Positions 19,628 to 63,753 of a DNA stretch of 64,000 bases are shown here, piece after piece. Position numbers and translations under genes: made by a program. The notes under the pieces are model-generated. The model searched no databases. It was not told the DNA's origin and was given only the letters and a program-made list of their open reading frames with translations. Each line of letters starts with the position of its first letter. Position 1 is the first letter of the stretch. The stretch covers positions 1,824,001-1,888,000 of the forward strand of contig CAWCYI010000004.1 of assembly GCA_963799845.1 (NCBI GenBank), given 5' to 3'. The stretch comes from an uncultured Nitrososphaerota archaeon (GTDB taxonomy: Archaea > Thermoproteota > Nitrososphaeria > Nitrososphaerales > CADDZS01).

Positions 19628-19653
19628 TTATAAGCCGATCTCAAGATTCTTCG
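19628..19653 (-). promoter_or_regulatory. Recurrent upstream element plus TATA box
   Basis: CGAAGAATCTT-gagatcggc-TTATAA. Confidence 0.6.
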
Positions 19654-20084
19654 GTATTACTCCCTAGCATTTGCCGGCTTCTTCCCGGGAGCTTCAGCGA
19701 ATCGAGGGCTCATTCTCGGGTTGGAAAATTCCAAACGAAAGTACCTAACAAAGTTCAAAAATCTTAATGAGTGACCCGCTGCAATCAGTACGTCATGCCT
19801 AGAATGAAGAAGTGCGATAGTTGTGGGCATGAGGAATTTCTTCATTTGTACACGACCCAGATTTGCACTGCGAAAAGATGCAGATGCAACTGCTGGAAGG
19901 AACCTAATTCGCATCGCATGACAGAATCAATCGATTTGTATTAGTGCGGAGGAAAGCACGAAGTAGCGGTTCCTAGTGAATGAGTCGTCTATCAGAAAAT
20001 TCTCGAAGTTCAGGACTTTTCAAAGGAATACATTCGTGTCTTATCCCATAACGGCTTAATATCGGATATAGCCTTGAGACACTT

Positions 20085-20414
20085 ATGAAGAAATTTATCG
20101 TGTTATACAAGTCAGAGCAACCAGCGGAAGAAATGATCAGGAACACGACCGAAGAGCAAAGGAAACAAGGAATTGACTTGTGGATGCAGTGGGCAAGCAG
20201 AGCTGGAGATACGCTTGTTGATTTGGGCACGCCCCTCGGAAATGGGCGCAGCATCGCCAAAACCGGCACTGAAAACCTGCGTGCCGGAGTGAGTGGCTAT
20301 TCAATTATGCAGGGGGAAAGCATGGAGACGATTAGAAAACTCTTGGAGGAACATCCACATTTCATGACCCCTGGTAAGGTCTCGATCGAAGTTTACGAGA
20401 CCCTACTAATGTAG
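20085..20414 (+). CDS. YciI-like (YCII-related) protein
   Basis: MKKFIVLY...WMQWA...LVDLGTPLG...SGYSIMQ...HPH...IEVYE. Confidence 0.7.
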   Translation: MKKFIVLYKSEQPAEEMIRNTTEEQRKQGIDLWMQWASRAGDTLVDLGTPLGNGRSIAKTGTENLRAGVSGYSIMQGESMETIRKLLEEHPHFMTPGKVSIEVYETLLM

Positions 20415-20510
20415 CCAAGCCCCCCGAAGGCTGACGGTATGTTTCCCCTGACTCCGCTTCGAAAGAAAGTCTGAATGCTGACTTCACTCGCAAATCGGAC
20501 ACTTCCATTA

Positions 20511-20648
20511 CTATATCTGCGAGCTTGCGGCGGGCGAATCGATCCTTCGTTCTTCGAGATCGACTACAATAATATGATTCCGTCTAGGGAACTCGTGAGC
20601 AAAGACGTGAATCAAGTTTTCAATAGCTTTCATCTTATCTTTGTCCAT
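20511..20648 (-). CDS. 45-aa microprotein, paralog of 15281-15457 (not in the ORF track)
   Basis: MDKDKMKAIENLIHVFAHEFPRRNHIIVVDLEERRIDSPAASSQI; GGTGAAT before the ATG. Confidence 0.6.
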   Translation of the reverse strand: MDKDKMKAIENLIHVFAHEFPRRNHIIVVDLEERRIDSPAASSQI

Positions 20649-20843
20649 ATTCACCTACCCTTTCTGGATCTTCGGAAATTATTTTTGAAAGCATGGCAAC
20701 CACGGATGTATTTTTTCCCAGAACTAGGACTTTTCCAATTAGAGAATCTGAACTTGTTGAATTGGCGAGCTCAATCAGGTTCGACATCGTATCGGTAAGC
20801 ATACTGCTATGGATTGAAAAACTGGGAAATACCTAGACTTGGG

Positions 20844-21104
20844 TTATTCTTCCAAGAGGTATTCTCCCATTTCTCTAATGAGATTCCTCGCTTCCCGAAC
20901 TTTTTTGGAATTATCCTCTGCGTAAGATTTTATCTTAAGGAGAGCGAGTTCGATCGCTTGACTATTTCCCTTGCCTTGCTCAATAGAATCTTCGATTACT
21001 TCGGCTTCGAAAACTATCATTTGGTCAATGTCGATGCTCGAATGCATCAACAAATTCACTCTTTGTATTTCACCCGGTTCTTCTTGATCGATTTCTTTTA
21101 GCAA
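20844..21104 (-). CDS. Stand-alone DHp/HisKA-like helical protein (copy 1)
   Basis: NLLMHSSIDIDQMIVFEAEVIED aligns without gaps to DILTHDIVNYNQIIRLQAELMGD of kinase 49175; paralog of 40527. Confidence 0.6.
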   Translation of the reverse strand: MLKEIDQEEPGEIQRVNLLMHSSIDIDQMIVFEAEVIEDSIEQGKGNSQAIELALLKIKSYAEDNSKKVREARNLIREMGEYLLEE

Positions 21105-21323
21105 GAACTGGTCCCTTCAAACATCAACTATTGTAAATGCTTTCAGGTTATTATCTTTGCAGTAACAATGATCCCAATAATAGTGATCCGGTTCCTCAGG
21201 CAGCCTTAGCTGCTGCCTGTGTGAAGAGCCGGATTGCATCCAAACGAAGGTAACTCGCAGATTCTCAAAAATAGTAATATCGACGTTCTATACATCGATG
21301 CTTAGCATCTGTGAAATATAATC

Positions 21324-21524
21324 TCAGCTTTTCTTAGCGCCTTTTAGAGTCGCCCTAAAAGCAACATCCACCACTATGCCGGCCTGAATTTTTTCAACCG
21401 AGAATTTGTAAGTCTCGATATTCGCGTCTACTTTGCCCAAATATTGGTGAATCTGATTTCCGAATGAGACAAGCTGGGTCTTTGCATCTTCGAGAGAGAT
21501 TGATTTCTTGTCGTCTTCTTTCAT
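21324..21524 (-). CDS. Small hypothetical protein, paralog of 48223-48459
   Basis: Shared QL..(F/Y)G.QI..YL.KVDA..E.YKFSVEK...G...D..FRATL. Confidence 0.75.
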   Translation of the reverse strand: MKEDDKKSISLEDAKTQLVSFGNQIHQYLGKVDANIETYKFSVEKIQAGIVVDVAFRATLKGAKKS

Positions 21525-21554
21525 TTTTCGATCGGGTGTGAGTAGGTGCATATG

Positions 21555-21583
21555 CTATAAGAACTTGAGGTAAGATTGTACTA
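21555..21583 (-). promoter_or_regulatory. Recurrent upstream element plus TATA box
   Basis: TAGTACAATCTT-acctcaagttc-TTATAG. Confidence 0.55.
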
Positions 21584-21841
21584 AATTCTCTATCCTTTTC
21601 ATAGATAGGAGTTTCATTCTCCATTTTACCTTGAAGAAAGATATACCATCCGTTCTTCTCGGGTTGTGCTGGACTATCCTTCGGGAAGGTCGGCCACAGG
21701 TCTTACCTGGTCCCGAGAGGACTTTTCTAATTCTGTCTTTAGGTTATTGATGGGTCTGGGCATGATTCGGAAGTCCCAGATCATCTTTGCCGGAAAACTA
21801 ACAGGTTAGTTACGACGGGCAAGTCTACATTAGGAGACGCG

Positions 21842-22111
21842 ATGGCTGCAATTCTTAGAGGCGGGTTGATCTATTTTCTAGTATTTTATGGCGTGCATTT
21901 CTTTTTGGCAGCACTACAAGGTTCGCCGGCCATATTTCTTGCACTCATTCTCGCCTTGCTCGCTTGGTTGGCCGTCTATCGTGCTTCATTTGATAAGAGC
22001 TGGTTTGGCGCGTTAGGCATAGTTGTAGTCGCATGGCTAGTTTTGGTCGTTTTAGACGCGATTCTGATTGCAACACCAGGCGTGAGTCTTCCCAAATTTT
22101 ATCCCTTCTGA
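21842..22111 (+). CDS. Small membrane protein; 5' part appears decayed
   Basis: Three TM helices; the C-terminus WLAVYRASF...WFGAL...PKFYPF is shared with 60919-61070. Confidence 0.6.
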   Translation: MAAILRGGLIYFLVFYGVHFFLAALQGSPAIFLALILALLAWLAVYRASFDKSWFGALGIVVVAWLVLVVLDAILIATPGVSLPKFYPF

Positions 22112-22490
22112 ATTTGGGGATCCCCAGATCTCAATTTTCGAAGTTGGCGGTTATCTGCCGAGCATGTGTATGAGCGATTCAGCCAAACCCAAAAGAATCG
22201 GAAATGTGAAGTTCCGTCCAAATGTGTTTGATTTCGAGCACAATTCCTGCTTATTTCCTTAGCAGCATCCCAAATTCTTGTTTACGAAAAACTAGTCCAT
22301 TTGAAAGCATTTCGTTCTACCAAACTTACCAGCCCAGGGGTTTGGTTTGATTCATGTGCATTTGAGGCGAATTTCTGCTTGTGCAGATACGTAGAAAGCG
22401 CAGATCCCGTGCGTACTCCGACAAGTCTGAATTCGCTTCGAAGCTCAAACAGGAATGGATACTTTGGAAAAAAGCATGCCAGTTCTTGTC

Positions 22491-23426
22491 TTAGCTTTTG
22501 TTGGCATCACGTACTTTGATCTTGAGCTGGGTTCTTATTTCCAGTTTTTCATTTTCGTCTTTTTCTGATCTCACTTCCCTTGCATGGGAACCGTGGGTTT
22601 CCGCGTAAACTTTAGAAAACTGGGCGCCGAACAGGATAAACAGGTTCATTATGTATATCCACAAGAACAGGACCATGAGAGCGCCGGCGGTTCCTGCAAG
22701 AGTCGTGACTTGAAAGACGCTCAGGTATACGCCGAATAGATAGTTGAGAATCGTGAAGACGAAGGCGGTTATCGCCGCCGCTAACCACACATCTCCCCAT
22801 CTGACGAGTGTTTCAGGTAGCAATTTGAAGATGATGGCGAATAGAAGGGTTCCTAATCCCAGAGATAGAACGACCTGAAGGGATCTCAAGAACAGAGGAG
22901 CCATGCTGCCTATCAATGGAACGAGGATGAATACCATTGCGTTGAAGAGCACGGTCGAGAAGGTGGTCCAGGCCACCACAATGAGTGAAAGCCCCACAAT
23001 CAACAAGAACGGAACCGCTTTTTTTCTTACGCTCGCTAGCCTCCCTTGTTTGGTTGGTTCTACCTCCCAAATTGCATCCATAGATTTTTGTAAGACCGAA
23101 AACGCGCCGACCGCCCCGGAAATCGCGAAGGTGACGCTTATCAGAGAGCCAAAATAAGATGTTAACGGACTCGCCGCGTTCCTTAGAAGTTGAGCAAGAA
23201 GGGCCCCGACGGAGGAACCAGCAAACGAGCTTACTTGGTTAACGAGTTGTTGGAGGGCTTGTTGTTGCCCGTATACCTGTGCGAGTATCGCCACGGCAAT
23301 GAGCGCGAGAGAGGGTAGGGGCATTATCGTAAAGAACGTGAGCGCGCCCGCAGTCAGCGTGGCGTCATGTTTTTGCCACTTCGTGAAGGTAACTTTGATC
23401 AAGTCTGTGAATTCTTGCCTGTTCAA
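22491..23426 (-). CDS. YihY/virulence factor BrkB family membrane protein
   Basis: AGALTFFT..PL, IFKLLP...WGDVWLAA, GALMVLFLWIY...ILFGAQF. Confidence 0.9.
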   Translation of the reverse strand: MNRQEFTDLIKVTFTKWQKHDATLTAGALTFFTIMPLPSLALIAVAILAQVYGQQQALQQLVNQVSSFAGSSVGALLAQLLRNAASPLTSYFGSLISVTFAISGAVGAFSVLQKSMDAIWEVEPTKQGRLASVRKKAVPFLLIVGLSLIVVAWTTFSTVLFNAMVFILVPLIGSMAPLFLRSLQVVLSLGLGTLLFAIIFKLLPETLVRWGDVWLAAAITAFVFTILNYLFGVYLSVFQVTTLAGTAGALMVLFLWIYIMNLFILFGAQFSKVYAETHGSHAREVRSEKDENEKLEIRTQLKIKVRDANKS

Positions 23427-23471
23427 GGACTTGCCCCTCGCTTCACCATCTAAAAAATAGCGACGACCAGC

Positions 23472-24128
23472 TCAGATCATCATTTCTATCGCGGTATACA
23501 CGCTGTTGATGGCCAGAGCTCTTGTCTTTGTCACGAGCTGCAAAAGCGTGGGTTTCGCATCTGCGCCCAAGGTTGCAATTCGGCGACCCTTGTAGGAGAC
23601 CGTCAGGGTAATTCCTAATTTCTTGGAAGTCTCAGCAATCGTCCTCATCATGGCAAGGGGATTGGATTTTTTCTCATTCACTTTCTTTTCTCGCGCCTCT
23701 GGATTCTTGGGAGTAAGCTCGTTGCGGAACTTCATCACCCTTTTCATGAACTGTTTATCCTCCACATCAAGGTCTAATTGTCTGCCCGCTACCTTGACTC
23801 TAAGCACCTCTAAATCTCCCGTGGAAATGAGAACCCTCCCCGATTCGAATGCAGTCGCCCTATTGTCGCGCTGTTCTTGCGACATCTTCACCGCCCCGTA
23901 ACTCGCGTTTCCGTTCTTCTTGTGTATAACATTGAAGTCGAGCTCGCCGGCGACTTCGTATAGTTTGTCGTCGATGGTGAGTCTTATGTCCTGAACGTCC
24001 ACCCGGAGGCTAGATTTTCCTCCCACGAGCTTGTCGATTATTTCGGCTATGCGATCGGGCTTCCATTTTGAAAATTCTTGTTTCAGTTCTGACTGGTTAA
24101 AGACCGTCACGACGAAGCACCCTAGCAA
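23472..24128 (-). CDS. Hypothetical protein
   Basis: 218-aa ORF, co-oriented with and just upstream of YihY. Confidence 0.65.
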   Translation of the reverse strand: MLGCFVVTVFNQSELKQEFSKWKPDRIAEIIDKLVGGKSSLRVDVQDIRLTIDDKLYEVAGELDFNVIHKKNGNASYGAVKMSQEQRDNRATAFESGRVLISTGDLEVLRVKVAGRQLDLDVEDKQFMKRVMKFRNELTPKNPEAREKKVNEKKSNPLAMMRTIAETSKKLGITLTVSYKGRRIATLGADAKPTLLQLVTKTRALAINSVYTAIEMMI

Positions 24129-24563
24129 ACATCACGAGGGTCCAGGTGGCGACAGGTTTCGCTACTCACAACGCTTCTCCTTCGCCTTCTGGGGCTTTCT
24201 GCTTTAACTTCGATTCGTTACAATCTTCCTAACAAGATCTCTGTAACTATCTGCTCTGGATAGTGTGGTTCCAGCGCCCTCTACCTGTCAAAGAGGGATC
24301 CCAAGATCGAACAAAAGAAATCTACTGAAGGACGAGTAATTTGTACTGGACACCAGTAATGATTACAAGAATATGAATGTCTTACGGAGACTCAAATCAA
24401 TTAGTGATCACCAGATCATCAAAGAGGACGTGACTAACGATAGGTCATCGCTAGATGTTTTTCAAAGGAACGCTGATGCCTCATTCACGGCATTTTGAAT
24501 GGCAGTTTTTTCATTTATTTGTTGTTTGATAAATGAAGAATCCAGATTAGATAATGATTGAAA

Positions 24564-24953
24564 TTAATTCTTCACCATTTCTAGGCATTCACCGAGTTGT
24601 TCAATTGAAAATGGTTTCAAAAGGAAAGGAAATCCTGCTTCAGCCGCTTTCTGTTTCACGAAATCATAAGCCGACACGAGAATTATTTTTGTGTTCTTTT
24701 TGTATCTAACTATGATGTTGGCTGCTTCGATACCGTTCATCTCGGGCATTCGATAATCCATGATGATGATGTCAAAAGACTGGCGATCTTTAGAAAGGGC
24801 TTTGACTATCGACGTTCCATCATTGAATAGAGACGGAGATGGATATCCTAATTTTTCGATGACTTGTGAACAGAGACCGGGCAGGTCCGGCTCATCATCG
24901 ACGACTGCAATTCTCAGATCAGCAATTCTTGGACTGTTGTTCGTTGCGACCAT
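24564..24953 (-). CDS. Stand-alone response regulator receiver
   Basis: VVDDE, MDYRMPEMNG, KPF. Confidence 0.92.
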   Translation of the reverse strand: MVATNNSPRIADLRIAVVDDEPDLPGLCSQVIEKLGYPSPSLFNDGTSIVKALSKDRQSFDIIIMDYRMPEMNGIEAANIIVRYKKNTKIILVSAYDFVKQKAAEAGFPFLLKPFSIEQLGECLEMVKN

Positions 24954-25193
24954 TATCCCAAATTTGATTGGTACAGAACTAAATTTTCATAAAAGCGAAG
25001 CGCTCTCTTGCAATTTTCGCTACTGGGGAATTCTCCATTTTAGGAGAAAAAGCTCTTCGGGTATCGAGATTCGACATCCATTCTTAATACAGACTGCACC
25101 CCGATTTTCCAAAAATCACTTAAGTGAAACATGAATGACCCAAATCATTCAACCATTAACTCTAACTGCACTCCAATATCTTCCATGCTATGA

Positions 25194-25580
25194 ATGCGAA
25201 AGACATCCCATCTATCCAAAGAAACCTCCCATGACGTTACATCTAGGCGAAGTATGCCTAATCTGCAAGGACAAGGAATCTTTTTGAGTTTCGTCATTCT
25301 TGGAACACAGGCTGGAATCATCGGAATTCTACTCCTCCTTGCCGATGGATTAGTAATTGGAATAGCTGGAAAGAAAGCTCTGGCTTCAGTTCTCCTCATA
25401 ATTGTTTGCTTGGTTCTCGCTAGTTTCATCGGGCTCGTAATTCCTTTCTTAACAGTGAGCGACGTTTGGACTCAAGTAGTTAGTATTCTGAGTTCCCAAG
25501 CATCTCGCACCGGACCAATAATCTACTCATTTCCAGTGTTCTGGATTCTCGGTTTTGGCATCGGTGTGTGGAAAGGCTAG
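25194..25580 (+). CDS. Small membrane protein (family with 37130 and 43130); true start probably later
   Basis: DGLVIGIAGKK...FPVFWILGFGIGVWKG. Confidence 0.7.
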   Translation: MRKTSHLSKETSHDVTSRRSMPNLQGQGIFLSFVILGTQAGIIGILLLLADGLVIGIAGKKALASVLLIIVCLVLASFIGLVIPFLTVSDVWTQVVSILSSQASRTGPIIYSFPVFWILGFGIGVWKG

Positions 25581-25645
25581 TTAGAATCCGCTGTATTTTA
25601 ATTGAAGTCTAATCATATCACTTTTCTGGAGATGCCAGTGAGGAT

Positions 25646-27346
25646 TTGACGAGTGCTGTCGAACGCACAGAAGTTCTGACAGATCAGAAGTTAGTTATGG
25701 ACAGGGCTCTCGCCATTTTCTCCAACGCGAAGAATGGGGTTGACATACTCGCGGAAGCGATGGCTCTCCCGGAATCAGAGCAATCTCAAGAGGCCAAGAA
25801 CGCGGCGGAAGCATACTTCGACATAAAGAAGAGGGGAGGACGCCTGAGGATACTCACTAAGATTGACGTGAAGAATGTTTCGTACAGTAAGGAGCTAATG
25901 AAAAACGTAGAACTTCGTCATCTTGACGACGTAAAGGGGAACTTTGCGATAAGCGACAGCGAGTACATTTCTTCTCCGACGGGCACAACTTTTCGCCCTA
26001 ATATCATGGTCCCCGTCATCTATAGTAATGCCAGACCTTTCATTGAGCAAAACAGAAATGCGTTCGAGAGATTCTGGTATATGGCCACGCCTGCAGAGGA
26101 ACGAATCAAAGAAATTGAGGAAGGGATTGTTCAACCCCGGATTGAAATAATAAACAACCCGGACCAGATTCTAAAGCTGCATTTCGATCTAGTTATCCAA
26201 GCCAAAGAAGAAATTCTGGTCATTTTGCCAACTGCTAACGCGTTCCATCGCGAAGAGAGAATCGGGGTAATTGAAGCTCTGAAGATCGCCGCCTCAGAAC
26301 GAGCAGTGAAGGTCAGCATAATCGCTCCAGATTCCCTCATTCAGGAGACTCTCGGATCTTTGAACAGAGAGACACAGGCACACGCCGGGAGAGAACTGAT
26401 TAACCACAGGCGTATTCTTGAAGCCACTACTCCTAACACCGTAACTGTTCTCGTGGTCGATAGAAATTCCTCACTCGTCATCGAAGAGAAGGATGACTCG
26501 CAAGCCGATTTTGGCAAAGCAATCGGCGTGGCCACCTATTCGACTAGGAATTCCATGGTGCTCGCAAACGTTCGGTTCTTTGAGAGAATGTGGGAAGAGG
26601 TTGAACTCAGGGAGAGGGAAAAGGTTCTCCTGGAAAGGGAGAAACGAAGCAGAAAAGCTGCAGAACTTTTGCAGGACATCATGGCGCACGACATCAGGAA
26701 CTACAATCAGATTTCCAAGACCAGTGCCGAAATGTTGAAGGCTGACTTGCAGAGCACACAAAGGCTATCTCTTATTGATTCGATACTGAAAGCAACAGAC
26801 GGTTCAAGCGAGCTGATCGATAGGGCTAAGAAACTGGGAAGGATAATCTCGCAGGTGGAAATAGAGCTCCATCCTGTCGATCTCAAAGATTCGCTGGAAA
26901 CATCGGTAGCCTTGATAATAAAGTCCCATCCTCAAAGGTCAATCAATCTTTCATCCTCTGTAGAATCGGGAGTACGAGTGTTCGCGGATAATCTGTTGGA
27001 GGAAGCGTTCACTAACATAATGTCTAACTCGGTCAACTACACTGAAACAGATGAAGTTCCTGTTGAAATTCAAGTGGAAGAGACCGAAGAAGAGACTCTT
27101 GAAAGAAAAAGGATGCCGTACTGGAAGATAACTTTCACTGATCATGGAGAGGGCATACCGGACAAGATGAAGGACAAAATATTCACGCGTTATCTGAACA
27201 CATCAACTGGAGCGGGCCTTGGACTCTCAATAGTCTATGCGCTGGTGGTGGAGAGGTATTCGGGAAAAGTGAAAATCACAGATAGGGTGAAAGGAGACTA
27301 CGCAAAGGGGACAAAGGTGGAAGTATGGTTACCAAAAGCATCTTGA
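25646..27346 (+). CDS. Cytoplasmic sensor histidine kinase with tandem TrmB/PLD-like N-terminal domains
   Basis: H-box AHDIRNYNQ, N-box NIMSNSVNY, G1 DHGEGIP, G2 GAGLGL; ELRHLDDVKGNFAISD sensor motif; no TM helix. Confidence 0.92.
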   Translation: MTSAVERTEVLTDQKLVMDRALAIFSNAKNGVDILAEAMALPESEQSQEAKNAAEAYFDIKKRGGRLRILTKIDVKNVSYSKELMKNVELRHLDDVKGNFAISDSEYISSPTGTTFRPNIMVPVIYSNARPFIEQNRNAFERFWYMATPAEERIKEIEEGIVQPRIEIINNPDQILKLHFDLVIQAKEEILVILPTANAFHREERIGVIEALKIAASERAVKVSIIAPDSLIQETLGSLNRETQAHAGRELINHRRILEATTPNTVTVLVVDRNSSLVIEEKDDSQADFGKAIGVATYSTRNSMVLANVRFFERMWEEVELREREKVLLEREKRSRKAAELLQDIMAHDIRNYNQISKTSAEMLKADLQSTQRLSLIDSILKATDGSSELIDRAKKLGRIISQVEIELHPVDLKDSLETSVALIIKSHPQRSINLSSSVESGVRVFADNLLEEAFTNIMSNSVNYTETDEVPVEIQVEETEEETLERKRMPYWKITFTDHGEGIPDKMKDKIFTRYLNTSTGAGLGLSIVYALVVERYSGKVKITDRVKGDYAKGTKVEVWLPKAS

Positions 27347-27840
27347 TCGTTCGACAGGTCTATCCGCCCAGTTTCGCCACTTTGATAAGCTCGACCACAG
27401 ATTATTCAGGAAAATCGAATCGGATCGGACAGAACACTCATTTTTCAAACGATCAAGGCGAGACTGGAAGGCATAGCAGCAAGAGCATCGCGATAGTGGA
27501 TGATGAGGAAGACTTGTGCTCGTTGTTTTCAATGTTGATCAAGAATTTAGGATATCACGCGGCGTGTGTTGCCCATGACGGAGATGAAATTGTTCAACTT
27601 GTGTTGGAGGATAGCATCCACCCGGATCTGATATTGATGGACTACCGCATGCCTACGATGAATGGCATGCAGGCAGCCGAGAAGATTCTGCACGTCAGGC
27701 CGGAGACAAAGATAATCATCGCCACTGCCGACGACTCGGTGAGGCGAGATGCGATTTCTGAGGGGTTTTTCTTCATACAGAAACCTTTCTCCATATCGGC
27801 ACTCGCCAAGAAAATAGAAGAGGCATTAGGACAGCGATAG
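27325..27840 (+). CDS. Response regulator receiver (start uncertain)
   Basis: IVDDE, MDYRMPTMNG, TA, KPF; directly follows the kinase. Confidence 0.88.
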   Translation: MVTKSILIVRQVYPPSFATLISSTTDYSGKSNRIGQNTHFSNDQGETGRHSSKSIAIVDDEEDLCSLFSMLIKNLGYHAACVAHDGDEIVQLVLEDSIHPDLILMDYRMPTMNGMQAAEKILHVRPETKIIIATADDSVRRDAISEGFFFIQKPFSISALAKKIEEALGQR

Positions 27841-28044
27841 TGAGTCGACCTAGAACATCCGAAGCGATATGCCATGATCATGTATCGAAGTTCCATATGG
27901 AGGAGTCATCCTCTCATCATCTGATTTATGAACTACGAGATATTTCAAGGTTGGTCCTATTTCTCTCGCCTATTGATTATACACAGGTCTTCTAGTCTGC
28001 AGTTTCCAAGATGTTATCAGCAGCAAACTCTATTACACGCAAAC

Positions 28045-28310
28045 GTGGGTTTAGGGCGATAGATAATCATTCTGCTCTTGATTGTTGTACTTTATAGCTT
28101 TTTGGTTCCTGTTTTTCCTGTGACATCGTAATCCCGCTCAATTTTTGGGCAACCTTTCAAATTGGTGCCAATATCTCCTTGACATTTCTTATCTTCCACT
28201 GCGGCTACTATTCGAATGCCCATTCATCTACCAACATAGATGGATCACATTTACGCATCCAATTTCGAACTGATACAATTTTCAGTGTAACTTTTCGAGC
28301 TCATCTGAAT
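28045..28310 (+). pseudogene. Decayed paralog of 16744-17052
   Basis: GLGR*IIILLLIVVLYSFLVPVF ... LTFLIFHCGYYSNAHS ... YNFQCNF, with stops and shifts. Confidence 0.6.
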
Positions 28311-28370
28311 AACAGAGTTTGTTCAGGAGAAAACAGGGGACTCCAAAGCTGCCAAATCAAAGCGTACGAA

Positions 28371-28493
28371 CTAACCTACGTCTTCATTAGAATCATCTTT
28401 TTTTGCTTTCCCTAACTCCTGAGGGAGATCTGGCTTGCCTTCGATTTTTTCTTCGAATTTATCCTCGGCTTTTTCTTTTTCGTTCTTATGCAT
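28371..28493 (-). CDS. Possible 40-aa hydrophilic microprotein
   Basis: MHKNEKEKAEDKFEEKNRRQARSPSGVRESKKDDSNEDVG; a variant of the upstream element-N9-TAAATA precedes it. Confidence 0.35.
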   Translation of the reverse strand: MHKNEKEKAEDKFEEKIEGKPDLPQELGKAKKDDSNEDVG

Positions 28494-28994: not shown

Positions 28995-29105
28995 GTCTGT
29001 CGGATCGAGGGCACTGATGATTTGGGAAATTTGTAGCCCGTTAGATGAAAATCGATGGAATGAATCCTAGACTACATATTATGGATTTTCCATCTTAAGA
29101 TAATT

Positions 29106-35607: not shown

Positions 35608-35615
35608 TTATCGAA

Positions 35616-54537: not shown

Positions 54538-55950
54538 ATGCCCCGGGATCGAGGCCAAATTCTCCAGGTAGCGGATCATCGGAGAATTCCTAACGAATTA
54601 GAGCAATTCCTGCATCACGACGCTTTCTCCCTTGTAGTCAAGGGTGGGGCCGGCACCGGCAAAACTGCTCTGGCATTGACAATTTTTAGCATGTCTGTGG
54701 AAAAGCAAAACTGTCTCTACATTTCTAGCAGGCTCGCTCTCCCAGAGCTGTTTGAGTTCTATCCTTGGGTTCGAAATTACGTGCCCAACACAAAAGCTGG
54801 GAATCAAAGTTCCGAATTTTCGGGTGAGAGTACTGAAGTCGGTCCTTTCGTCGATGCTCGTTTAGATGAGCCCCAATCCCTTTTTGAGAGAATAACAAAT
54901 CAGTTGATGGATGCAAGTTCTCCTCTAATTGTGATAGACACTTGGGACGCCGTCGGGGATTTCATGGACAAAGAAGCCCTAATGACAAATGCAAAGATAC
55001 TCCAAATTTGGAGACAGAGGGCTCGCGCGAAACTCATATTCGTTCTCGAAAATGTGGAGGACATAATTTTCGACAATCTGGTAGACGGAGTTGTGGAACT
55101 TGAAGAAGATTACGTTAATTCGCGGAGAATCCGAAGAATACGTCTGACCAAGCTTCGGGGGATCAAAATCGAAAAGCCCCAGAACTTTTTCACTCTAAAC
55201 GAGGGTGTCTTTCACAGTTTCGATCAATACGACCAGTCGAAGTGGATCGAGCTATCTGATGCCGTCGATTCTGGGTCTTATGGTTTTCAGTCTGTTGATA
55301 TATTTCCTGACGGATCTCTTCGTTCCTCAATCTCAGTTGAGGGCATTCTGGCTGGAAAAATTCCAAAACATACGGTTGTTAGTATTGAACTGGATCCTAC
55401 AGCAAGTTCAAAGTCAATTCTTCCACTTATTGCTAGAATCGTTTCAGGATATTCCAGGAAAAATGAAGTTGTTTTGTTGCCTCCCTTGGGCGTCGCGGAC
55501 AAGGATATCGAGAGCCTATTGAAATTATTTGTCACAAACTCCAAGCAGAGGAGGAGAATCCGGATACTGAATCAGAATAATGGAAAGGCTTGGACAAATG
55601 AAAATTTTGCACAGTTAACGGATGTATTGAAGAAAATTGTCGCCAAGAACAAAGGAAAAGAGAACCGCTCCGAACTTCTTGGTGTATTTTCCATCGGCCC
55701 ATTATTCAACAAGGATATGACTGATCTTGAGAATCTTGTCGAAACCATAATTTCAGATTTTGATTCTTCGGTTGTAGTAACCCGATCGAGTGACAGCTTC
55801 CAGAAGCTATCCGAAATTGCCGATGTCCGTTTCAGGATAATCGAACTGGAAGGAAATCTATTCGTGCAGCCTGATAACCCATGGGCGAGCCTATACGGGA
55901 TCGAGAACGAGAAAAATGGCGAAATAATTTCAGTTAGACCAATGGTATGA
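54538..55950 (+). CDS. KaiC/RecA-superfamily ATPase, GvpD-like
   Basis: Walker A GGAGTGKT, Walker B IVIDTW, LVDGVVEL, KLRG...FTL; degenerate second domain. Confidence 0.8.
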   Translation: MPRDRGQILQVADHRRIPNELEQFLHHDAFSLVVKGGAGTGKTALALTIFSMSVEKQNCLYISSRLALPELFEFYPWVRNYVPNTKAGNQSSEFSGESTEVGPFVDARLDEPQSLFERITNQLMDASSPLIVIDTWDAVGDFMDKEALMTNAKILQIWRQRARAKLIFVLENVEDIIFDNLVDGVVELEEDYVNSRRIRRIRLTKLRGIKIEKPQNFFTLNEGVFHSFDQYDQSKWIELSDAVDSGSYGFQSVDIFPDGSLRSSISVEGILAGKIPKHTVVSIELDPTASSKSILPLIARIVSGYSRKNEVVLLPPLGVADKDIESLLKLFVTNSKQRRRIRILNQNNGKAWTNENFAQLTDVLKKIVAKNKGKENRSELLGVFSIGPLFNKDMTDLENLVETIISDFDSSVVVTRSSDSFQKLSEIADVRFRIIELEGNLFVQPDNPWASLYGIENEKNGEIISVRPMV

Positions 55951-55969
55951 CGTATAGGGTTTTCGAAAC

Positions 55970-56350
55970 TTAGTTGATAAATGATTCAGCCACATCTTCC
56001 AGCTTACTTCGTGATATTGCAGCTTCCAAAACTTGTTGCAGCTGCTGGTATTTACGCATGAACATCATCCCAGATTCTGTTGTGTAATAACACATGGTAA
56101 CGTGACTTTCATCCTTCCTTCCTTCAAGAAATTTGCAATTAAGTAGAAATGAAAGGTACTGTTGCATCTGTTTTGAGTTCAGATTGCAACTGTACATTAT
56201 TCTTGTCTTGACTGAGCCGGAAACACACTGAGAGAGGATCAACCAGATAATCTCAATCCACCCGCGCTTTCGTTTGCTAGATTGCAAATGTTCCTCTACA
56301 AGCGAATTCAAATATCCTCGCTCTCTCGAAGGTGGAACTTGCATGTTCAT
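55970..56350 (-). CDS. HTH_45-type winged-helix regulator (divergent paralog)
   Basis: KRGWIEII..IL...KTRIMYSCNLNSKQMQQYL...YYTTESG. Confidence 0.85.
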   Translation of the reverse strand: MNMQVPPSRERGYLNSLVEEHLQSSKRKRGWIEIIWLILSQCVSGSVKTRIMYSCNLNSKQMQQYLSFLLNCKFLEGRKDESHVTMCYYTTESGMMFMRKYQQLQQVLEAAISRSKLEDVAESFIN

Positions 56351-57050
56351 GTTCCAGTTAGTATCTCCTCAAGGTTGATTCTTTGTTCTGGGGATATTCT
56401 GGGAATTCTCTCAATGGGCACCTGAGCGAGTGCCAAATCCTTCGTTAGACAAAGCTTCAAAACTTGAAAGCCTCCACGTGGTTTGTCGCAGTATTTAGGC
56501 GACTCTGAAGCGCCCGATACTCTGCAAGTCCCTTTATGGCGTTTGCCTTTAGGTACAGTTTACTATGCTGCGACCAGAAGATATCAATTAATCGGACTTT
56601 CTTGTTGATGACGTCAGAAATGTCAAAGTAAACTTGGGGAGAGAAATTCTTGGTAAGCGGGATCTCGTAAGCGAGAATGTTCGAATAGTAACGTCCCGCT
56701 TCCACTGTCGCGAGCGCGATTGCCCGATGATCATGGTGGGAGTCCCCGTCAGAGTGAGTCAGAATAAGGTCCGGTCTTGCCTTGTTTATTATGTGCTCAA
56801 TGTGGTTGATCAAATTATCATTAACGGAAAGCTTCATGTCTTCAAAATTGTCGATCCACAAGTTGGTTGCGCCAATAAACCTTGCCGATTCTTGCAGTTC
56901 CCTAGTTCTCTGAACCGGGTCTCCAGAGGCTGAACCTCTGGTCACTGCGTACATATTCACGAAATGACCTTGGCTGGCGCATTTTATCAAAAGCCCACCA
57001 CAACCCAATTCAATGTCATCAGGGTGGGCATCTATCGCTAATATGTTCAC
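56347..57050 (-). CDS. PIG-L family deacetylase; probable 3' frameshift near 56465
   Basis: AHPDDIELGCGG, HHDHR; the shifted frame VLKLCLTKDL...LTGT ends at a TGA overlapping the next ATG (ATGA). Confidence 0.85.
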
Positions 57051-57254
57051 GAGCTTAGAAGACCATCGAATTATCTTATGAATACGGGAATAATGTTCGA
57101 AACATTGTTCTCAAACATTGTAACCTTTGAATCATATTTTTAATGTCTCGAACTTGTTTTCAAGATTTGAACGACCGTTCTACGAATTTGAACGGGCATT
57201 CTATTCCATGCCGTAATATATCGAATTCCCGATTCAAGATGTAATTGATGGAAA

Positions 57255-57608
57255 ATGAAAGTCATGCTTGTAGACGACGAACAAGATATTCGCGAGCTCT
57301 ATGCCCGGATTCTGAATCGTGAGGGATACACTACAGTGAACTCATATTCAAATGGCGCCGATGCCGTGGCTGCCCTTCAGGAAGAAACAAATCATGCTGA
57401 TGTGATGGTCATAGATTATAAGATGCCAAAAATGGACGGTATTGAGGCTACCAGAAGAATTAGAAGTATGAACCTGAACATAAAGGTGATCATGGCGTCA
57501 GGCAGTGATGAGCTAACGGAATCCGATAGTTCTTTGTTTGACGTTATTTTGACAAAACCTATTTCGTTTCACGATCTGGTGAACGCTATCCAGAGATTCT
57601 GTCTCTAG
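57255..57608 (+). CDS. Stand-alone response regulator receiver
   Basis: LVDDE, IDYKMPKMDG, SG, KP. Confidence 0.92.
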   Translation: MKVMLVDDEQDIRELYARILNREGYTTVNSYSNGADAVAALQEETNHADVMVIDYKMPKMDGIEATRRIRSMNLNIKVIMASGSDELTESDSSLFDVILTKPISFHDLVNAIQRFCL

Positions 57609-57901
57609 TGATCTTTTTTGATTAGGATAAGAGGCATCGCAGTCTATTGACAATATTTTAGAATCTTTTTCTTTCTTTCTTTCAAGTCTTGCAAAACTGA
57701 TCATAGAAAGGTAAGACGTCGATACGCCGGAGTTAACAATCGAATCCAAAATTGAGTTGAAACACAAAACTTTGACTCGAAAATTCAAGCTTATCTGTCC
57801 AATATTGCCAATCCTGCACACAATTTCTAAACAAAGTCTTAAGAGTGAAAACTCATCCAAAAGACAAATCGAATCCTGAAAAATAAGATGCGTCTTTACC
57901 A

Positions 57902-58282
57902 GTGACTAACAGAAGAAAAATTCTGATCATTGATGACGATGCGGACGTCACACGCCTTTTCAAATTCGGCCTAGAGAGTGGAGGATTCGATGTTGATTAT
58001 TTTAATGATTCAAGGATAGCTCTCGATAGAATCAAACCCGATCTAAAATATGACCTCGCGATCTTGGACATTCGCATGCCCGATGTAGATGGTTTCGAAT
58101 TTTATAGGAAATTCAGTCTTATAGATAATCGGACGGCTGTGTGTTTCTTCACGGCTTTCGAAGACGAAGAGAAAGTGCACAATCTTATGCGAGATGATCC
58201 CAGGATTAAAGGGATCCTCAAGAAACCTATGAGTCTTTCAGAGTTCACAGCTCGAATTCAGCAACTAATCAATGGTAAATAA
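57902..58282 (+). CDS. Stand-alone response regulator receiver
   Basis: IIDDD, LDIRMPDVDG, TA, KP. Confidence 0.92.
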   Translation: MTNRRKILIIDDDADVTRLFKFGLESGGFDVDYFNDSRIALDRIKPDLKYDLAILDIRMPDVDGFEFYRKFSLIDNRTAVCFFTAFEDEEKVHNLMRDDPRIKGILKKPMSLSEFTARIQQLINGK

Positions 58283-58322
58283 TTATTACGCGCCCTAACG
58301 AGAACTAGCGGAGGACCAAGCT

Positions 58323-60258
58323 TTGAAAATACCAGACATTTCTTTTTCAAAGAGATCCTCACTCATAATTGTTGGAATAATCGTCATCGCTGCAGTCTTA
58401 TCTCTAGCTTCTCTCCTATCATACAGCTACACGTCTACGAATATAACAAATTCAGCAATCGGTGAAATCCATCTCAATGCTCAAATTCAAGCGAATGATA
58501 TGAGCAACTTGGTCGTAGCAAAGTTGGAATCTGTCTCTACCAATCTAGAAGTAATTTCCGGATCAAAAGCTGTCGAGAATCAAAATGTAACAGTAGTCCA
58601 GAGCCTCCTCGACGCAGCTCAGAATTCTACGAGTAATTTCACATTTTCTTACGCATGGATTAACAAATCAGGTATTTCGTTAGCCAGCTCTAATATTACG
58701 AATTTTGAAATTGCCAAGCAGGAAGGAGATCTAAACGAGAGCCAGAGGTCATTCTTTATAGAAGCGGAAGAGACGGGGACGACTTACTATAGCACTGCAA
58801 CAATCTCGGTTGTGAGTGGAAAGCAGTACATAGTGATAGACTCAACCGCTATTCATCGATCAATTAAATGGGTCACGCGCCACAAATCTGTTCAACGGAA
58901 TCTTGACAGCGTCAATTAGTCTCATTTCTCTAGGCAGGTACGTTCAAACCCAGTTATCCTCTCATTCCCAAAATTCCGTCGGACTTCTTGACCCGACTGG
59001 GGTTATTTTGTATTCAACTAACGAGTCGGCGATAGGAAGCAATGTTTTCGCAAACCAGTTTCAGGATTCGCTACCTTCAGCCCTAAAAGGACCATTCTAT
59101 TCCATGATCAACGAATCTCTTCTAGGACAGCCTGGAATTTCGGATTTTTCATTCAACGGTTCCAGCGGGACTTTTGCTTATCAGCCAGTATTTGTTCCCA
59201 GAGGATCCAATGAGTCAAACCCTCAAGAATTTGCAATACTTTTTATTTCTGCGCCTCACGTCTTGGCAGCGATCCAGACATCTCAAATTACTTTTCTTGG
59301 CGAAGTAACAGGAATCACAGTTGGAGGAATTGTTGCCGTCTCACTCGTTGCATCCATCACGGTATTGCGATGGAACAAGAGACTTGATGAACGCGTGAAA
59401 GAGAAAACTGCTGAATTAGTTTCTTCAAACGAAAGACTTGCTTTGGCTAACGCTCAGCTTGAAGATCAGAATAGAGCACAAAAAGATCTTATCAACATAG
59501 CCGCACACGAGCTTAGAACGCCCACTCAAAGCATCTTGGTAAGTACGGAAATAATGCAAGATACTTTGCGCTCGGCTGAAAAAGTTTCGTTTCCTTCTAT
59601 TCCATCAGCGGATAGCTCGCCCCTTTTGCAAAGAGCGATCTCATCCAACATAATCACTCCGGATTCAGCCCGGTCGACCGAGACTTCTTATCTAGATCTG
59701 AAAGAATTAGTTGAAACTACAAACAGAAACGCAAAAAGGCTTTCAAAACTGACTCAGAACATTCTAGAGGTTGCAAAGATTGATAATAAAGCCCTAAAAT
59801 TGGAACTTGAAACTTTCAACCTGAACGATACGATACGGGAAGCAATTGAGGATTGCCGCATGTCATCTTCGATTAATGGTTTTGGAAACTACTTCAAAAT
59901 CGTTTTCGAACCCAGTTCCTCTACGCTTCCAGTAACTTCTGACAAAACAAAAGTCTACGAGGTAGTCCAAAATCTATTGAGGAATGCAGTGGAACATTCA
60001 GGAAGCAGTGGTAAGAAGATAATTATTACAGCGGAAAAGTCGAGTGGTTCTATCCTGGTAAGCGTCAAAGACGAGGGAACTGGGATTGATCCTGAAATAC
60101 AACCCAGGCTGTTCAACAAATTTGTAACCAAAATGGGGACCGGACCTGGTTTATACATTTCAAAGGGATATGTTGAAGCGCTTGGTGGAAAAATCTGGGC
60201 CGAAAATAATTCCGACGGGCCTGGTGCGACTTTCTCTTTTTCTTTGCCGCAGGAGTAA
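58323..60258 (+). CDS. Membrane sensor histidine kinase with Cache-like extracellular domain, frameshift near 58840
   Basis: TM-Cache-TM layout, AAHELRTP, NLLRNAV, DEGTGID, GTGPGL; the two ORFs join via QPLFIDQLNG...GILTASIS. Confidence 0.88.
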
Positions 60259-60317
60259 CAGAAGAAGATTATCGATTTGATGATACCAAACTTTACGTTT
60301 CAGAAAGTCTGCTGACT

Positions 60318-60716
60318 TCATAGCGAACTTACAATTTGATCCGTCTTTACGTTTGCCAGGGATTCAGCGAGCTGTTCAGATGAAAAAGGTTTCAAGATAT
60401 AGGGCAATCCCGCTTCAATCGCCTTTTGCCTAACGAAATCGTACCCAGTTGCGATGATTATCTTGGTCTTATTTCGGTATCTTTGGATGATCCTGGCCGC
60501 TTCTATTCCATTCATCTCGGGCATTCGATAATCCATTATGATAATATCAAATGACTGACGATCTTTCGCCATCGCCCTGACTATCGAAGTTCCATCTTTG
60601 AAAATAGACGGAGGTGAATATCCTAACTTCTGAATAACTCTTGAATAAAGATCGGTCAGGTTCACATCGTCGTCGACTACGGCAATTTTCAAATTCTTAT
60701 TTTCTTCCACTTGCAA
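60318..60716 (-). CDS. Stand-alone response regulator receiver
   Basis: VVDDD, MDYRMPEMNG, KPF; paralog of 11822 and 24564. Confidence 0.92.
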   Translation of the reverse strand: MQVEENKNLKIAVVDDDVNLTDLYSRVIQKLGYSPPSIFKDGTSIVRAMAKDRQSFDIIIMDYRMPEMNGIEAARIIQRYRNKTKIIIATGYDFVRQKAIEAGLPYILKPFSSEQLAESLANVKTDQIVSSL

Positions 60717-60918
60717 AAATCCACTCTATCTTATGAGAATACTCGGTTGATGAATACGCACCAGTGCCGAGTCTCGTATAAAAAGGGGCCGTCAATTTTG
60801 CTGGAAGTTTCCTATAGAAGAATCTTCCAAATTATTACCCTCAATAGATGATCAGTAAGTGCATGTTTTTCCGAGAGCAGTTCACGGAAATTCTTGTCAG
60901 GAAAAGGAGACTCCATTG

Positions 60919-61375
60919 CTAAAAGGGGTAAAATTTGGGGAACGTAACTCCAAATGCCAGACCGAGGACGACATCAAGTACAACCAGTACTATCCATGCT
61001 ATTACTATAATCGCCAAAGCTCCGAACCAATTCGTTTCGAAAGAAGCCCGATATACCGCGAGCCAACGTCTGATCCGAGGATGTTGAAATTGCAGTCGAA
61101 CTATTGGCGGAGGATTGGTTCTGATTCGTGAGGGAAGTAGTACTAACATCGCTCGACGCCGAGCTAATCGTCGAATTTGTATCATTTTTCGCGCTGAGGG
61201 GATCAGTCGAATTCGGTAGTTGAGGTGCCGGAATTTGGTTTTGGTCTGCCAGTCCCCGAATAAAGAAGACGCCAACGATCGCCGCAATTACTATTAATGA
61301 AATTAAGAGGAGTGTGAACAAGACAAGAAGACCGTTCTCCCTGTCACCCTTCCTCTCGTAAGGTCGATAAGACAC
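60919..61375 (-). pseudogene. Chimeric locus: TM + Ser/Thr-rich gene 5' part joined to the 3' half of a 21842-type membrane gene
   Basis: The S/T-rich ORF runs out of frame at about 61070 into WLAVYRASF...PKFYPF. Confidence 0.55.
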
Positions 61376-61484
61376 CGTAATCCGAATAAAATACCAATTA
61401 GTTGCTTTATTGTCGGTGGAGCTTTGTTATCTAGGATAATTTTGGATACGAACCCTTGCTCATTTATAAATAAATACCAAAGAT

Positions 61485-61513
61485 TAGAACAATCTTACAT
61501 TAAATTTTTATTA
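61485..61513 (+). promoter_or_regulatory. Recurrent upstream element plus TATA box
   Basis: TAGAACAATCTT-acattaaat-TTTTATTA. Confidence 0.6.
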
Positions 61514-61535
61514 TCGCGGCTCATCCGTGATTCTT

Positions 61536-61850
61536 ATGAAGTACAGAAGTAGTACAGAGATAATTGACACTATTCTCAGGTCGTTAGATTCTGGTGCTAC
61601 TAGAACACGGATAATGTACAAGGCATATCTCTCCTACTCCCAATTGAAGGAATACCTCTCCCTGCTCCAAGACAGACAACTTCTGAAGTACGAAGAAGGG
61701 TCGCAGGTCTACACTATTACCGAAAAGGGACTTCGTTTTATGAACGCCTATGATGAGATTAGAGAATTGGTATCGGGGAGTCAAGAGGAAAATTTTCAAA
61801 AGGAGAGTCTGGGGACAACTCCGAATAAGAACCCTGAACTCTCCCAGTAA
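61536..61850 (+). CDS. HTH_45-type winged-helix regulator (paralog 4)
   Basis: MKYRSSTEIIDTIL...ATRTRIMYKAYLSYSQLKEYL. Confidence 0.9.
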   Translation: MKYRSSTEIIDTILRSLDSGATRTRIMYKAYLSYSQLKEYLSLLQDRQLLKYEEGSQVYTITEKGLRFMNAYDEIRELVSGSQEENFQKESLGTTPNKNPELSQ

Positions 61851-62079
61851 TAAGTCTCTTTTTCCAGCAGAATTTCTTCCCCTCTCATGGTTTTTGAGGG
61901 GCGTTTATTCAGATCTCATTTCTGTTTATTCTGAGATATTTTGTTACGTGGAGTAGTGAGCAAGAAGCGTAGAACTCTGGGTGAGAGTTTCGGTCAGGCA
62001 GGGATCAGTACTCCCGTTAGACCAGTGTAGAAATGTGTACTGGTTATAGTTCTCCACGCAAGAGGTGTAAGTCTGTCCT

Positions 62080-62394
62080 TTAGTTGCTCCAGAGTAAGTC
62101 AGAGGGGAATATCCTTGACTGACAACCTGACCTGATGAATTTGTAATATAATGCGTAGAGTCCCGTAATTTGATTTCCCGACTGTGAAACTGTCTTAATG
62201 GTCAAAATTAAGCTGCCCCCTCCTGTCCCGCCATCGTCCGAATAGGAATCTCCACCGTAAATAGAGACCGTCCCCTGAGTTGAGGAAAGAACGCTGTTGC
62301 TTGAACTCAGGACTTCGATTTCTGCGCTCAGTGGCAAGATGAATTTCCCAACCTCGATGGTCGCCGAGCCACTTCGCTTTGGTGCACTCGCCAA
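62080..62394 (-). pseudogene. Fragment of a beta-rich (probably secreted) protein
   Basis: S/G/T-rich beta-strand-like sequence; both ends appear broken. Confidence 0.35.
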
Positions 62395-62696
62395 TTTACA
62401 TTCCCGTTACTGGGATTGATTAGCTCGACTTTCGCAGCACTTGAGGGTAGACCCGAGACGGTGAGATATTCGCGCTTGTCAAATAATAATTCAGAAACGT
62501 GGCGTAGAGTTCCGATCCAGTGTGCGACGTTTCGGGTTCAAGGTATATTTGGAATGGCTTTGGCATCAAGCACTTCAGCGATTAAATCTTGAAATTATAG
62601 TGTACGCGCGAAAGGAATACCGCTTTAGAATAATTTGACGGGGCGTATGAAAATACGGATGATAATCAGTCTGATCGAGATTTAACGAGAAATTTT

Positions 62697-63503
62697 CTAT
62701 GTGGCGATAGGCAGTGCAAATCTAAAGTTCGCTCCGCTCTGGGGCTTTGGATTGTTGGCAGCCATTATGGTGCCTTCGTGAGCCTCGATAATCTTTCGCG
62801 AAATGTACAGTCCCAGGCCCATTCCAGAGCCGGTGTCAGTTTTTTTGCCAAAGCGAGTAAACAAATGCGGATATACCTGGGAACTAATACCCGGGCCAGA
62901 GTCACGTACAATCACAATTGCGTAGCGCCCTGCTCTTTCAACTGCCATTTCAATCGCTCCCTCCTCCGTTACTTTTACCGCGTTCCCGAGAATATTGAAT
63001 AGAACTTGGGCTATTCTGTTCCTGTCGGCGTAAACATTGATTTCCTCACGAGAATCAAATTGCATTTGCACGTTCCTTTTCACGAACCGTCTGTGATCCT
63101 CCTGTACTTCGGAAATTAGAGCCGTCAGGTTGAATGTTGAACGTTCTAAAATAATGTTACGGGACTCGATTCTTGCCACATCCAGTATGTTTTGAGCCAG
63201 GTATTGCAGGCGGTAGGCGTTGCGGATAATGATTCGAAGTTCTTCCTTTTCCTTTCCCAACTCGTTCTGCAACATTTCAGCATTGAAAAGGATGGGCGAG
63301 ATCGGAGCCCGGAGTTCGTGGGCGGCAATATTGATGAAATCAGATTGATCTTCGAGTTGCTTTTGAAGCGCTTTCGTTTTTGACCCATTGGCACTTTCAC
63401 TAGCATTCGATATCTTGAGTACTGAGATAAATTCGTCAAGGGCTTGAAGCCCACGGTTAGATCGATCGCCAAGATTAGCGCGTATTGGTTCTTCGTTTAT
63501 CAA
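62697..63503 (-). CDS. Histidine kinase core (HisKA + HATPase) with little or no sensor
   Basis: AAHELRAP, NILGNAVK, DSGPGI, GMGLGL. Confidence 0.9.
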   Translation of the reverse strand: MINEEPIRANLGDRSNRGLQALDEFISVLKISNASESANGSKTKALQKQLEDQSDFINIAAHELRAPISPILFNAEMLQNELGKEKEELRIIIRNAYRLQYLAQNILDVARIESRNIILERSTFNLTALISEVQEDHRRFVKRNVQMQFDSREEINVYADRNRIAQVLFNILGNAVKVTEEGAIEMAVERAGRYAIVIVRDSGPGISSQVYPHLFTRFGKKTDTGSGMGLGLYISRKIIEAHEGTIMAANNPKPQSGANFRFALPIAT

Positions 63504-63537
63504 ACGAATGACGCCATAATAATCATACGAAGTTACA

Positions 63538-63753
63538 CTTAAGGTCAGAAGTCATATTGTACCAATCGAATGATCTGGTCGTCTAATTCATCTCTAAATC
63601 AGAATGAAAAGATCATTTTGCGTTCTGTAGCTAAGACAACTGATCTCGACAAATGATCCAGCTCTTAAAGTAATTGGAAGATTTCTCAAGAGATTCTTCG
63701 ATTCCATTCTGAATTAGAATTTTCTAGACAATATTATCTGTCTGTATTATTTA
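63538..63753. promoter_or_regulatory. Divergent promoters for the kinase and TFB genes with variant upstream elements
   Basis: Minus: TGGTACAATATG-acttctgac-CTTAAG (63553-63564). Plus: CTAGACAATATT-atctgtctg-TATTATTTA (63724-63735). Confidence 0.4.

Follow-up and report, generated by a model that had tools for sequence, protein, structure and literature searches.

A conserved palindromic box beside the TATA box in promoters of a low-GC island of an uncultured Nitrososphaerales archaeon: a predicted operator of a small regulon

Which sequence do the promoters of a genomic island in an uncultured Nitrososphaerales archaeon have in common, and which protein would read it? The question is raised by a stretch of 64,000 nucleotides (nt), called the window here (G000:C4:1824001-1888000), from a genome (G000) of 4.6 Mb in 9 contigs that is 86.7% complete and whose gene starts come from a crude caller of our own. 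A preliminary description had proposed that a 12-mer, followed by nine nt and a TATA box, stands before about 11 island genes in this window, as the cis-element of an activator-dependent regulon with positive feedback. All 11 sequences quoted there were found in their places on the gene strand. At ten sites the 12-mer ends 37-55 nt before the start codon, against 38-56 nt as first given, and a distance of ~42 nt was derived for site 63724 from the ATG of the TFB gene at 63778. The element itself is a 15-nt imperfect palindrome, TAGAAsAwTsTTyCA, which ends 6 nt before the TATA box in an alignment of 15 promoters of winged helix-turn-helix (wHTH) genes. This motif is real, lies well above chance and is conserved across species while its flanks diverge.

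First, the recurrence of the motif was compared with chance. The pattern TRGWASAWTCTT matched nine times (seven loci) in the window against 0.18 expected, and none of 100 shuffles reached nine matches. The proposed recurrence was thus borne out, but its form had to be revised, the 12-mer with its nine-nt spacer being the left part of the 15-nt box. One of the seven strict loci (16851) has no TATA box and is an orphan. Genome-wide, TRGWASAWTCTT matched 26 times, so 17 matches lie in the other 4.54 Mb; none of these 17 shows the arrangement of box, TATA box and gene start, and four are copies of one repeat. Because TRGWASAWTCTT had been fitted by eye, an unbiased count of 12-mers with at most two mismatches was made over 25.2 kb of the island's non-coding DNA. 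Of 17,467 seeds that were not of low complexity, TAGAAGAATCTT ranked first with 26 neighbours, compared with maxima of 16-21 in seven order-3 Markov simulations of the same count. When the island was compared with the genome by exact k-mers and by 10/11-mers, TAGAACAATCT, ATAGAAGATT and TAGAAAATTC ranked high, although not cleanly, because the GC content of the island is lower. Other enriched words were rejected as separate motifs, since they are ends of an insertion sequence (IS; TCTTAAGATAATT, 29093 and 30144) or coding repeats in the wHTH paralogues.

The 15 aligned wHTH promoters comprise 11 metagenomic ones (of a near-identical pair of loci, one was left out), two from G000, one from G004 and one from G006. 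Across them the box holds 1.46 bits per position, the TATA box 1.19 and the flanks 0.31 and 0.36, values that come from related and not mutually independent sequences of incomplete metagenome-assembled genomes and short contigs, with the metagenomic boxes delimited in knowledge of the motif, although TATA box and gene start fix their position. Two half-sites, TRGAA, lie 10 bp apart (TRGAA-N5-TTCYA), their centres one helical turn from each other. The gap between box and TATA box is exactly 6 nt in all 15 wHTH promoters and 5-8 nt at the seven supported proximal sites of the island, a position that abuts the TFB recognition element (BRE).

Next, relatives of the window were searched for the same box. 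These are genomes of Nitrososphaerales type, close homologues of one window protein being labelled Nitrososphaerales or Thaumarchaeota, and akin DNA is present in soil metagenome runs (the public runs listed were four DNA runs of one soil study and no RNA run). The wHTH protein, which has 328 relatives at E<=1e-10, was used to scan metagenome contigs and matched 15 loci, 13 of them at 64% identity or more; box and TATA box stand at the same place in 12 of these 13 orthologues, and were seen neither in the remaining one (L140) nor at the two loci of 44% identity. In a genome of the same genus, a 12.7-kb contig (G004:C38) is syntenic with window positions 43940-51846 at 67-79% nucleotide identity over the coding parts. 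This contig keeps the box at the promoters of the wHTH gene, the small-protein gene and the histidine kinase HK399, together with the distal site of a Cys-rich open reading frame (ORF), while the surrounding DNA cannot be aligned. For example, the HK399 promoter of G004 has the orthologous box TGTAAGAATCTT between unalignable flanks. The distal box before the Cys-rich ORF recurs with identical site and spacing in G004 (7779-) and in L130, and the promoter of the small 78-amino-acid (aa) protein has its orthologous box in G004, L133, L134 and L135. On two further contigs, the box also stands ahead of HK604-like and small-protein orthologues.

A related element was observed at a second, distant orthogroup of the same protein family, HTH_45. 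There, a TAGAAKAAT box lies 8-9 nt before the TATA box in G001, G008, G010 and G011. The orthogroup (N-terminus ..FKNRNRMEIVANLL..; G001:C94, C130 and C197, three copies in an unpublished genome; G008:C8; G010:C27; G011:C54) carries the promoter GCTAGAAKAATMCTACTG-N5-AATAT, which is strongly conserved throughout the family's three genera; G000 gave no orthologue with that promoter.

A matrix was then built from the 11 metagenomic wHTH-promoter boxes only and scanned over the whole genome. Its two best genome-wide matches were the island sites 51036 and 60815, which are also exact fits to TAGAA-N5-TTCCA. At 14 bits or more, 140 matches were obtained; the island holds 11 of these, where its length predicts 1.64 (Poisson p ~1e-6, hand calculation), and palindromic sites are tallied once per strand in the island as in the rest of the genome. 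Five of the 45 best matches have a TATA box at +4..8, four of them in the island, and only 0.11% of the window positions reach 5 bits. The strict 15-mer TAGAAGAWTCTTCTA was weakly enriched in the window with at most three mismatches (8 against 3.3 expected; 2 of 100 shuffles reach 8), and with at most two mismatches it was found 26 times genome-wide, four times in the island. TAGAA-N5-TTCCA was not enriched outside the island in this genome (19 matches, 19 for the reversed control), and a pattern search through 201 genomes of the order gave scattered matches, as did its reversed control, an unquantified result from which we draw no inference. In the genome-wide scan, all promoter-type boxes fell within the island 12000..64000; the box stands in promoter context nowhere else in this genome. 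The claim of a conserved cis-element that defines a small, island-confined regulon is therefore supported, by the cross-species conservation as well as by the matrix scan.

In the island, the box lies proximally at seven promoters and further upstream at two more. The sites are as follows, with scores from the independent matrix.

12000..64000: low-GC island, recognised by composition (41-47% GC against 47-54% in the flanks)
51036..51050, minus strand: box TAGAAGATTCTTCCA, 6 nt, then TTAATA; promoter of the histidine kinase HK604 (49175-50989); 23.9 bits, the best match of the genome
48612..48626, plus strand: box TAGAAGATTCTTTCG, 6 nt, then TTATATTT; promoter of an Sso10a-like wHTH gene (ATG 48664-48984); 18.6 bits
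61485..61499, plus strand: box TAGAACAATCTTACA, 6 nt, then TTTTATTA; promoter of a paralogous wHTH gene (ATG 61536-61850); 17.7 bits
48505..48519, minus strand: box TAGTACAATCTTTCC, 6 nt, then TTTTTA; promoter of the 78-aa protein (48223-48459); 11.4 bits
46215..46229, minus strand: box TGGAACAATCCTCCC, 7 nt, then ATATATA; promoter of the HK399 operon; 8.4 bits
21569..21583, minus strand: box TAGTACAATCTTACC, 8 nt, then TTATAG; promoter of a 66-aa paralogue of the 78-aa protein (21324-21524); 6.9 bits
37788..37802, minus strand: added site ACAAACATTGTTCCA, 5 nt, then TTAATATT; promoter of the third wHTH paralogue (37437-37745); 6.8 bits
60815..60829, minus strand: distal palindromic box TGGAAGATTCTTCTA / TAGAAGAATCTTCCA, 30 nt, then TTTTTATA; receiver gene 60318-60716; 22.7 bits on the plus and 15.4 bits on the minus strand
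46901..46915, minus strand: distal box TAGAACTTTCTTCTC, 22 nt before AAATATTA of the 59-aa Cys-rich ORF (46669-46848); 6.9 bits
38478..38492, minus strand: weak site TAGAAAGATCTTGTG, 6 nt, then TATTAG; 88-aa gene 38177-38443; -0.6 bits
19640..19654, minus strand: weak site CCGAAGAATCTTGAG, 6 nt, then TTATAA; DUF2795 gene 19390-19587; -0.6 bits
32817..32831, minus strand: weak site ATGAAGATTCTATCT, 6 nt, then ATAATA; C2H2 zinc-finger gene 32554-32772; 2.9 bits
63550..63564, minus strand: unsupported variant TGGTACAATATG before HK268 (62697-63503); -5.9 bits, with no better register within 3 nt on either side
63724..63738, plus strand: unsupported variant CTAGACAATATT before the TFB gene (ATG 63778, running past the window); -0.8 bits in the best register

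Six of the 11 sites first proposed (21572, 46218, 48508, 48612, 51039 and 61485) thus score at least 6.9 bits. The other five (19643, 32820, 38481, 63553 and 63724) stay at 2.9 bits or less, among them both so-called variants, before HK268 and TFB. The added site at 37788..37802 keeps only the TATA-proximal half-site. At the weak site 38478..38492, the left half-site alone matches, and TAGA(A) was seen by eye in the same register in the orthologue promoters of G010 and G011; the promoter of the DUF2795 gene's paralogue on contig C6 has no box. The HK399 operon runs from HK399 (44972-46171) through a HATPase ORF (44470-44814) to a receiver gene (43940-44473), and the 78-aa protein (48223-48459), of no known family, is encoded divergently from the wHTH gene 48664-48984. 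Good palindromic boxes at 52489-, 52551 and 52894 form a cluster in 52489-52908, where neither confident genes nor a clear TATA box are present.

Three pairs among the target genes are paralogues, and the island holds an IS; two matches of TAGAATTATCTT, at 30148, which adjoins an IS end, and at 35391, share TCTATAGAATTATCTT, neither being a promoter box. Such facts would suit a motif devoid of function, left by chance, by duplicated promoters of paralogues or by mobile-element remnants. However, the promoters have nothing but the box in common in register, even between paralogous genes, and no longer repeats were found; the motif is therefore explained neither by duplication nor by a mobile element. 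The box is also more conserved than the TATA box across the 15 promoters, and it was recovered both de novo and by a matrix made from foreign DNA. We consider a functionless box extremely improbable.

The position of the box was then considered together with the rest of the promoter. Genome-wide, TATA-like hexamers start abruptly 29-32 nt before ATG codons, and in thaumarchaeal amo genes TATA boxes have been placed 23-24 nt before the ATG (PMC3379541). The wHTH transcripts are therefore probably leaderless. In promoters of the TFB-RF1 and EarA type, a weak BRE or TATA box depends on the activator, and the preliminary description held that most spacers here lack a purine-rich BRE. In nine island spacers A fills 13 of 45 positions at -8..-4 compared with a fraction of ~0.41 in 70 other promoters, a small sample with crude gene starts. 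No BRE could be defined from a general promoter logo built on the crude gene calls, which came out too blurred, and a second attempt gave only a mild A-rich tract.

Which protein might bind the box? The island encodes five of the genome's 21 HTH_45 genes (16065-16478, 37437-37745, 48664-48984, 55970-56350 and 61536-61850), and four of the five are close paralogues that start with MKYRSSTEIID (VKYRGSTEIID in one). The candidate binders score 75.9 and 73.8 bits with HTH_45, for which the gathering cut-off is 25.5; the candidate with the higher value also matches 1R7J with an E value of 8.7e-12 over residues 2-87, the C-terminal helix included. Dimers of this family form by an antiparallel coiled coil at the C-terminus. 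We propose, tentatively and at somewhat less than an even chance, that the box is the operator of a dimeric island-encoded factor, probably an autoregulated Sso10a-like wHTH protein, that acts next to the BRE. The binder would most likely be the island's own Sso10a-family winged-helix protein, to which three lines of sequence evidence point: the best-conserved boxes stand in its genes' own promoters, the box tracks the orthologues, and a related box occurs at the second HTH_45 orthogroup. Autoregulation is suggested because the wHTH promoter carries the best-conserved copy of the box. A factor bound beside the BRE would control the assembly of TBP and TFB, and could hold together a self-contained module in which its own paralogues, two sensor kinase operons and small proteins without a known family are regulated jointly, presumably from leaderless transcripts given the TATA-to-ATG distance of ~30 nt. 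Feedback, as proposed in the preliminary description, fits the occurrence of the box before three Sso10a-like wHTH genes and two histidine kinases.

Several observations weigh against this proposal. Among eight genomic wHTH homologues of at least 53% identity, only four have the full box and one has half of it. No box was found at the island gene ~16065-16478, at G012:C63, at G003:C289 or at L140, all of them wHTH genes or homologues, nor at the other 16 HTH_45 genes of G000. Five of the 11 sites originally proposed fail the independent matrix, whose counts include palindromic sites twice. Further regulators are encoded in the island, namely ArsR/MarR (31377-32057), PadR (41618-42106), Lrp (15481-16047), a C2H2 finger and, at the island edge, TFB. 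A conserved box before a wHTH gene is equally expected if another factor regulates that gene. Finally, the Sulfolobus Sso10a proteins studied so far showed no sequence specificity (PMC4941522), and the model published there is a dimer over ~25 bp rather than a 15-bp palindrome.

The box may accordingly be a true operator of another protein, such as the island's ArsR/MarR, PadR, Lrp or zinc-finger regulator or a partner of the receiver-only regulators, the wHTH genes being merely targets. A half-site spacing of 10 bp suits classical compact wHTH dimers such as those of MarR, ArsR or PadR, the island encodes several other DNA-binding proteins, and the Sso10a geometry just cited (~25 bp per dimer, no specificity seen; PMC4941522) misfits the palindrome. 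Yet the own promoters of these other regulators lack the box, save for the weak C2H2 site, and the box follows the wHTH genes through 12 of 13 metagenomic contigs. Moreover, on the 12.7-kb contig of G004, where four boxes are kept, homology to the window identified no regulator-type gene besides the wHTH orthologue, the contig not having been annotated ORF by ORF. We regard another binder as possible but rather doubtful.

Whichever protein binds, the direction of control has to be weighed as well. With only 6 nt left before the TATA box, occlusion of the BRE is possible: a dimer covering it would block TFB, giving negative autoregulation and de-repression under stress. If an Sso10a-type dimer spans ~25 bp, a domain seated on TAGAA would place its partner domain over the TATA box. 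Two conserved sites, however, cannot act by occlusion because 22 and 30 nt separate them from the TATA box downstream, and archaeal activators typically occupy sites directly ahead of the BRE (PMC5512572). A repressor operator is thus a minority reading in our estimate, and recruitment-type activation appears somewhat likelier than repression.

The TFB paralogue at the island's edge (63778 onward) raises a further alternative, namely that this TFB itself reads the box as an extended promoter element, with no separate regulator. The box, however, lies farther out than the BRE, the 6-7 nt before the TATA box with which TFB makes contact (length from PMC5512572), is palindromic and is present also 22-30 nt away, and the TFB promoter itself has no supported box. 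This alternative is very unlikely. The wider form of the favoured proposal, that Sso10a-family proteins in Nitrososphaerales are sequence-specific, autoregulated transcription factors with the operator TRGAA-N5-TTCYA 6 bp before the TATA box, is a speculative extension that we would not yet expect to hold.

The genes around these promoters were also surveyed. The island encodes six histidine-kinase ORFs and five receiver-only response regulators, besides stress-type and other proteins (Usp, DUF892, DUF2795, BrkB-like). Pfam and NCBIfam gave no family for the 66/78-aa proteins, the 88-aa protein and most other small ORFs. Two 66/78-aa paralogues outside the island, L006 (G003:C336) and L017 (G000:C6:563004-566168), share a different upstream element, TTCACAAAAT..AC....AAT.TGAACTT.TGAC.TTTATAG, which perhaps marks a second regulon. 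The HK399 ORF (44972-46171), without a Pfam match, is followed by a separate 114-aa HATPase_c ORF (44470-44814), whereas its paralogue HK604 holds both kinase parts within one protein; HK399 and HATPase_c represent either one kinase, split or frameshifted, or an arrangement of two ORFs. No Pfam match was obtained for the long N-terminal regions of HK399 and HK604, and HK566 (25646-27346) has only a sub-threshold DUF7436. The preliminary description had grouped these proteins as three kinases; a sensor domain common to the three N-termini is only a guess. The IS, with an rve-type integrase (29220-30134), occupies 29093-30156, with TCTTAAGATAATT-type sequences as its limits (29093 and 30144). 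When a gene caller was trained on codon usage in the remainder of the genome, it rejected several island ORFs with Pfam hits (PadR, PIG-L, HTH_45), which together with the low GC suggests a foreign origin of the island; a tRNA gene flanking it was looked for and none was found. The host is apparently a non-ammonia-oxidising, uncultured soil thaumarchaeon. A search for amoA (PF12942) found no match in the 87%-complete genome, and the same search matched in no control genome either.

To our knowledge, the operator is known for only a small number of archaeal regulators, nearly all of them from cultured model organisms; Sso10a-family proteins have, as far as we know, been treated for twenty years as unspecific chromatin proteins. 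The analysis defines the site to 15 bp, names a small set of target genes and singles out one protein as the best candidate, and it makes the sequence specificity of Sso10a-type winged-helix proteins directly testable. It also outlines what would be a self-contained signalling module of kinases, receiver proteins, wHTH factors and small proteins in an uncultured soil thaumarchaeon. The box is solid as an observation and uncertain in mechanism.

How does the box compare with known systems? The eukaryotic heat-shock element, nGAAnnTTCn, consists of contiguous inverted nGAAn units, and some island sites contain GAAgaTTC, a resemblance only. The conserved parts of the box, TRGAA and TTCYA, are 10 bp apart, and many good sites lack GAAnnTTC (TAGAACAATCTT...), including 61485, 48508, 21572 and 46218. 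An AGAA-N2-TTCT core, and with it the likeness to the heat-shock element, was dropped once the orthologue alignment had given the 15-nt form.

The candidate binder resembles Sso10a and Sac10a (PDB 1R7J, Pfam HTH_45), and by score is a clear member of that family. A literature search found no DNA motif described in print for HTH_45 proteins, supplements lying outside the search. Sso10a proteins are described as chromatin proteins without known specific sites (PMC4941522), whereas the promoters of the island wHTH genes contain a conserved palindrome, a sign that these genes may be autoregulated in a sequence-specific way. As a site, the box is like those of the activators Ptr2 in Methanocaldococcus jannaschii, TFB-RF1 in Pyrococcus furiosus and EarA in Methanococcus maripaludis and like the ara-box of Sulfolobus, each a short specific element directly upstream of the BRE (PMC5512572). 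It shares with them a fixed distance to the TATA box and recurrence before several genes, which are co-regulated in the known systems (PMC5512572). It differs from them in its sequence, in its lineage of uncultured soil Nitrososphaerales, in having a candidate binder only, and in a regulon confined to one genomic island. In kind, then, the box is an ordinary archaeal cis-element; its sequence is new, and it comes from an uncultured lineage, with a candidate binder from a family without known sequence specificity.

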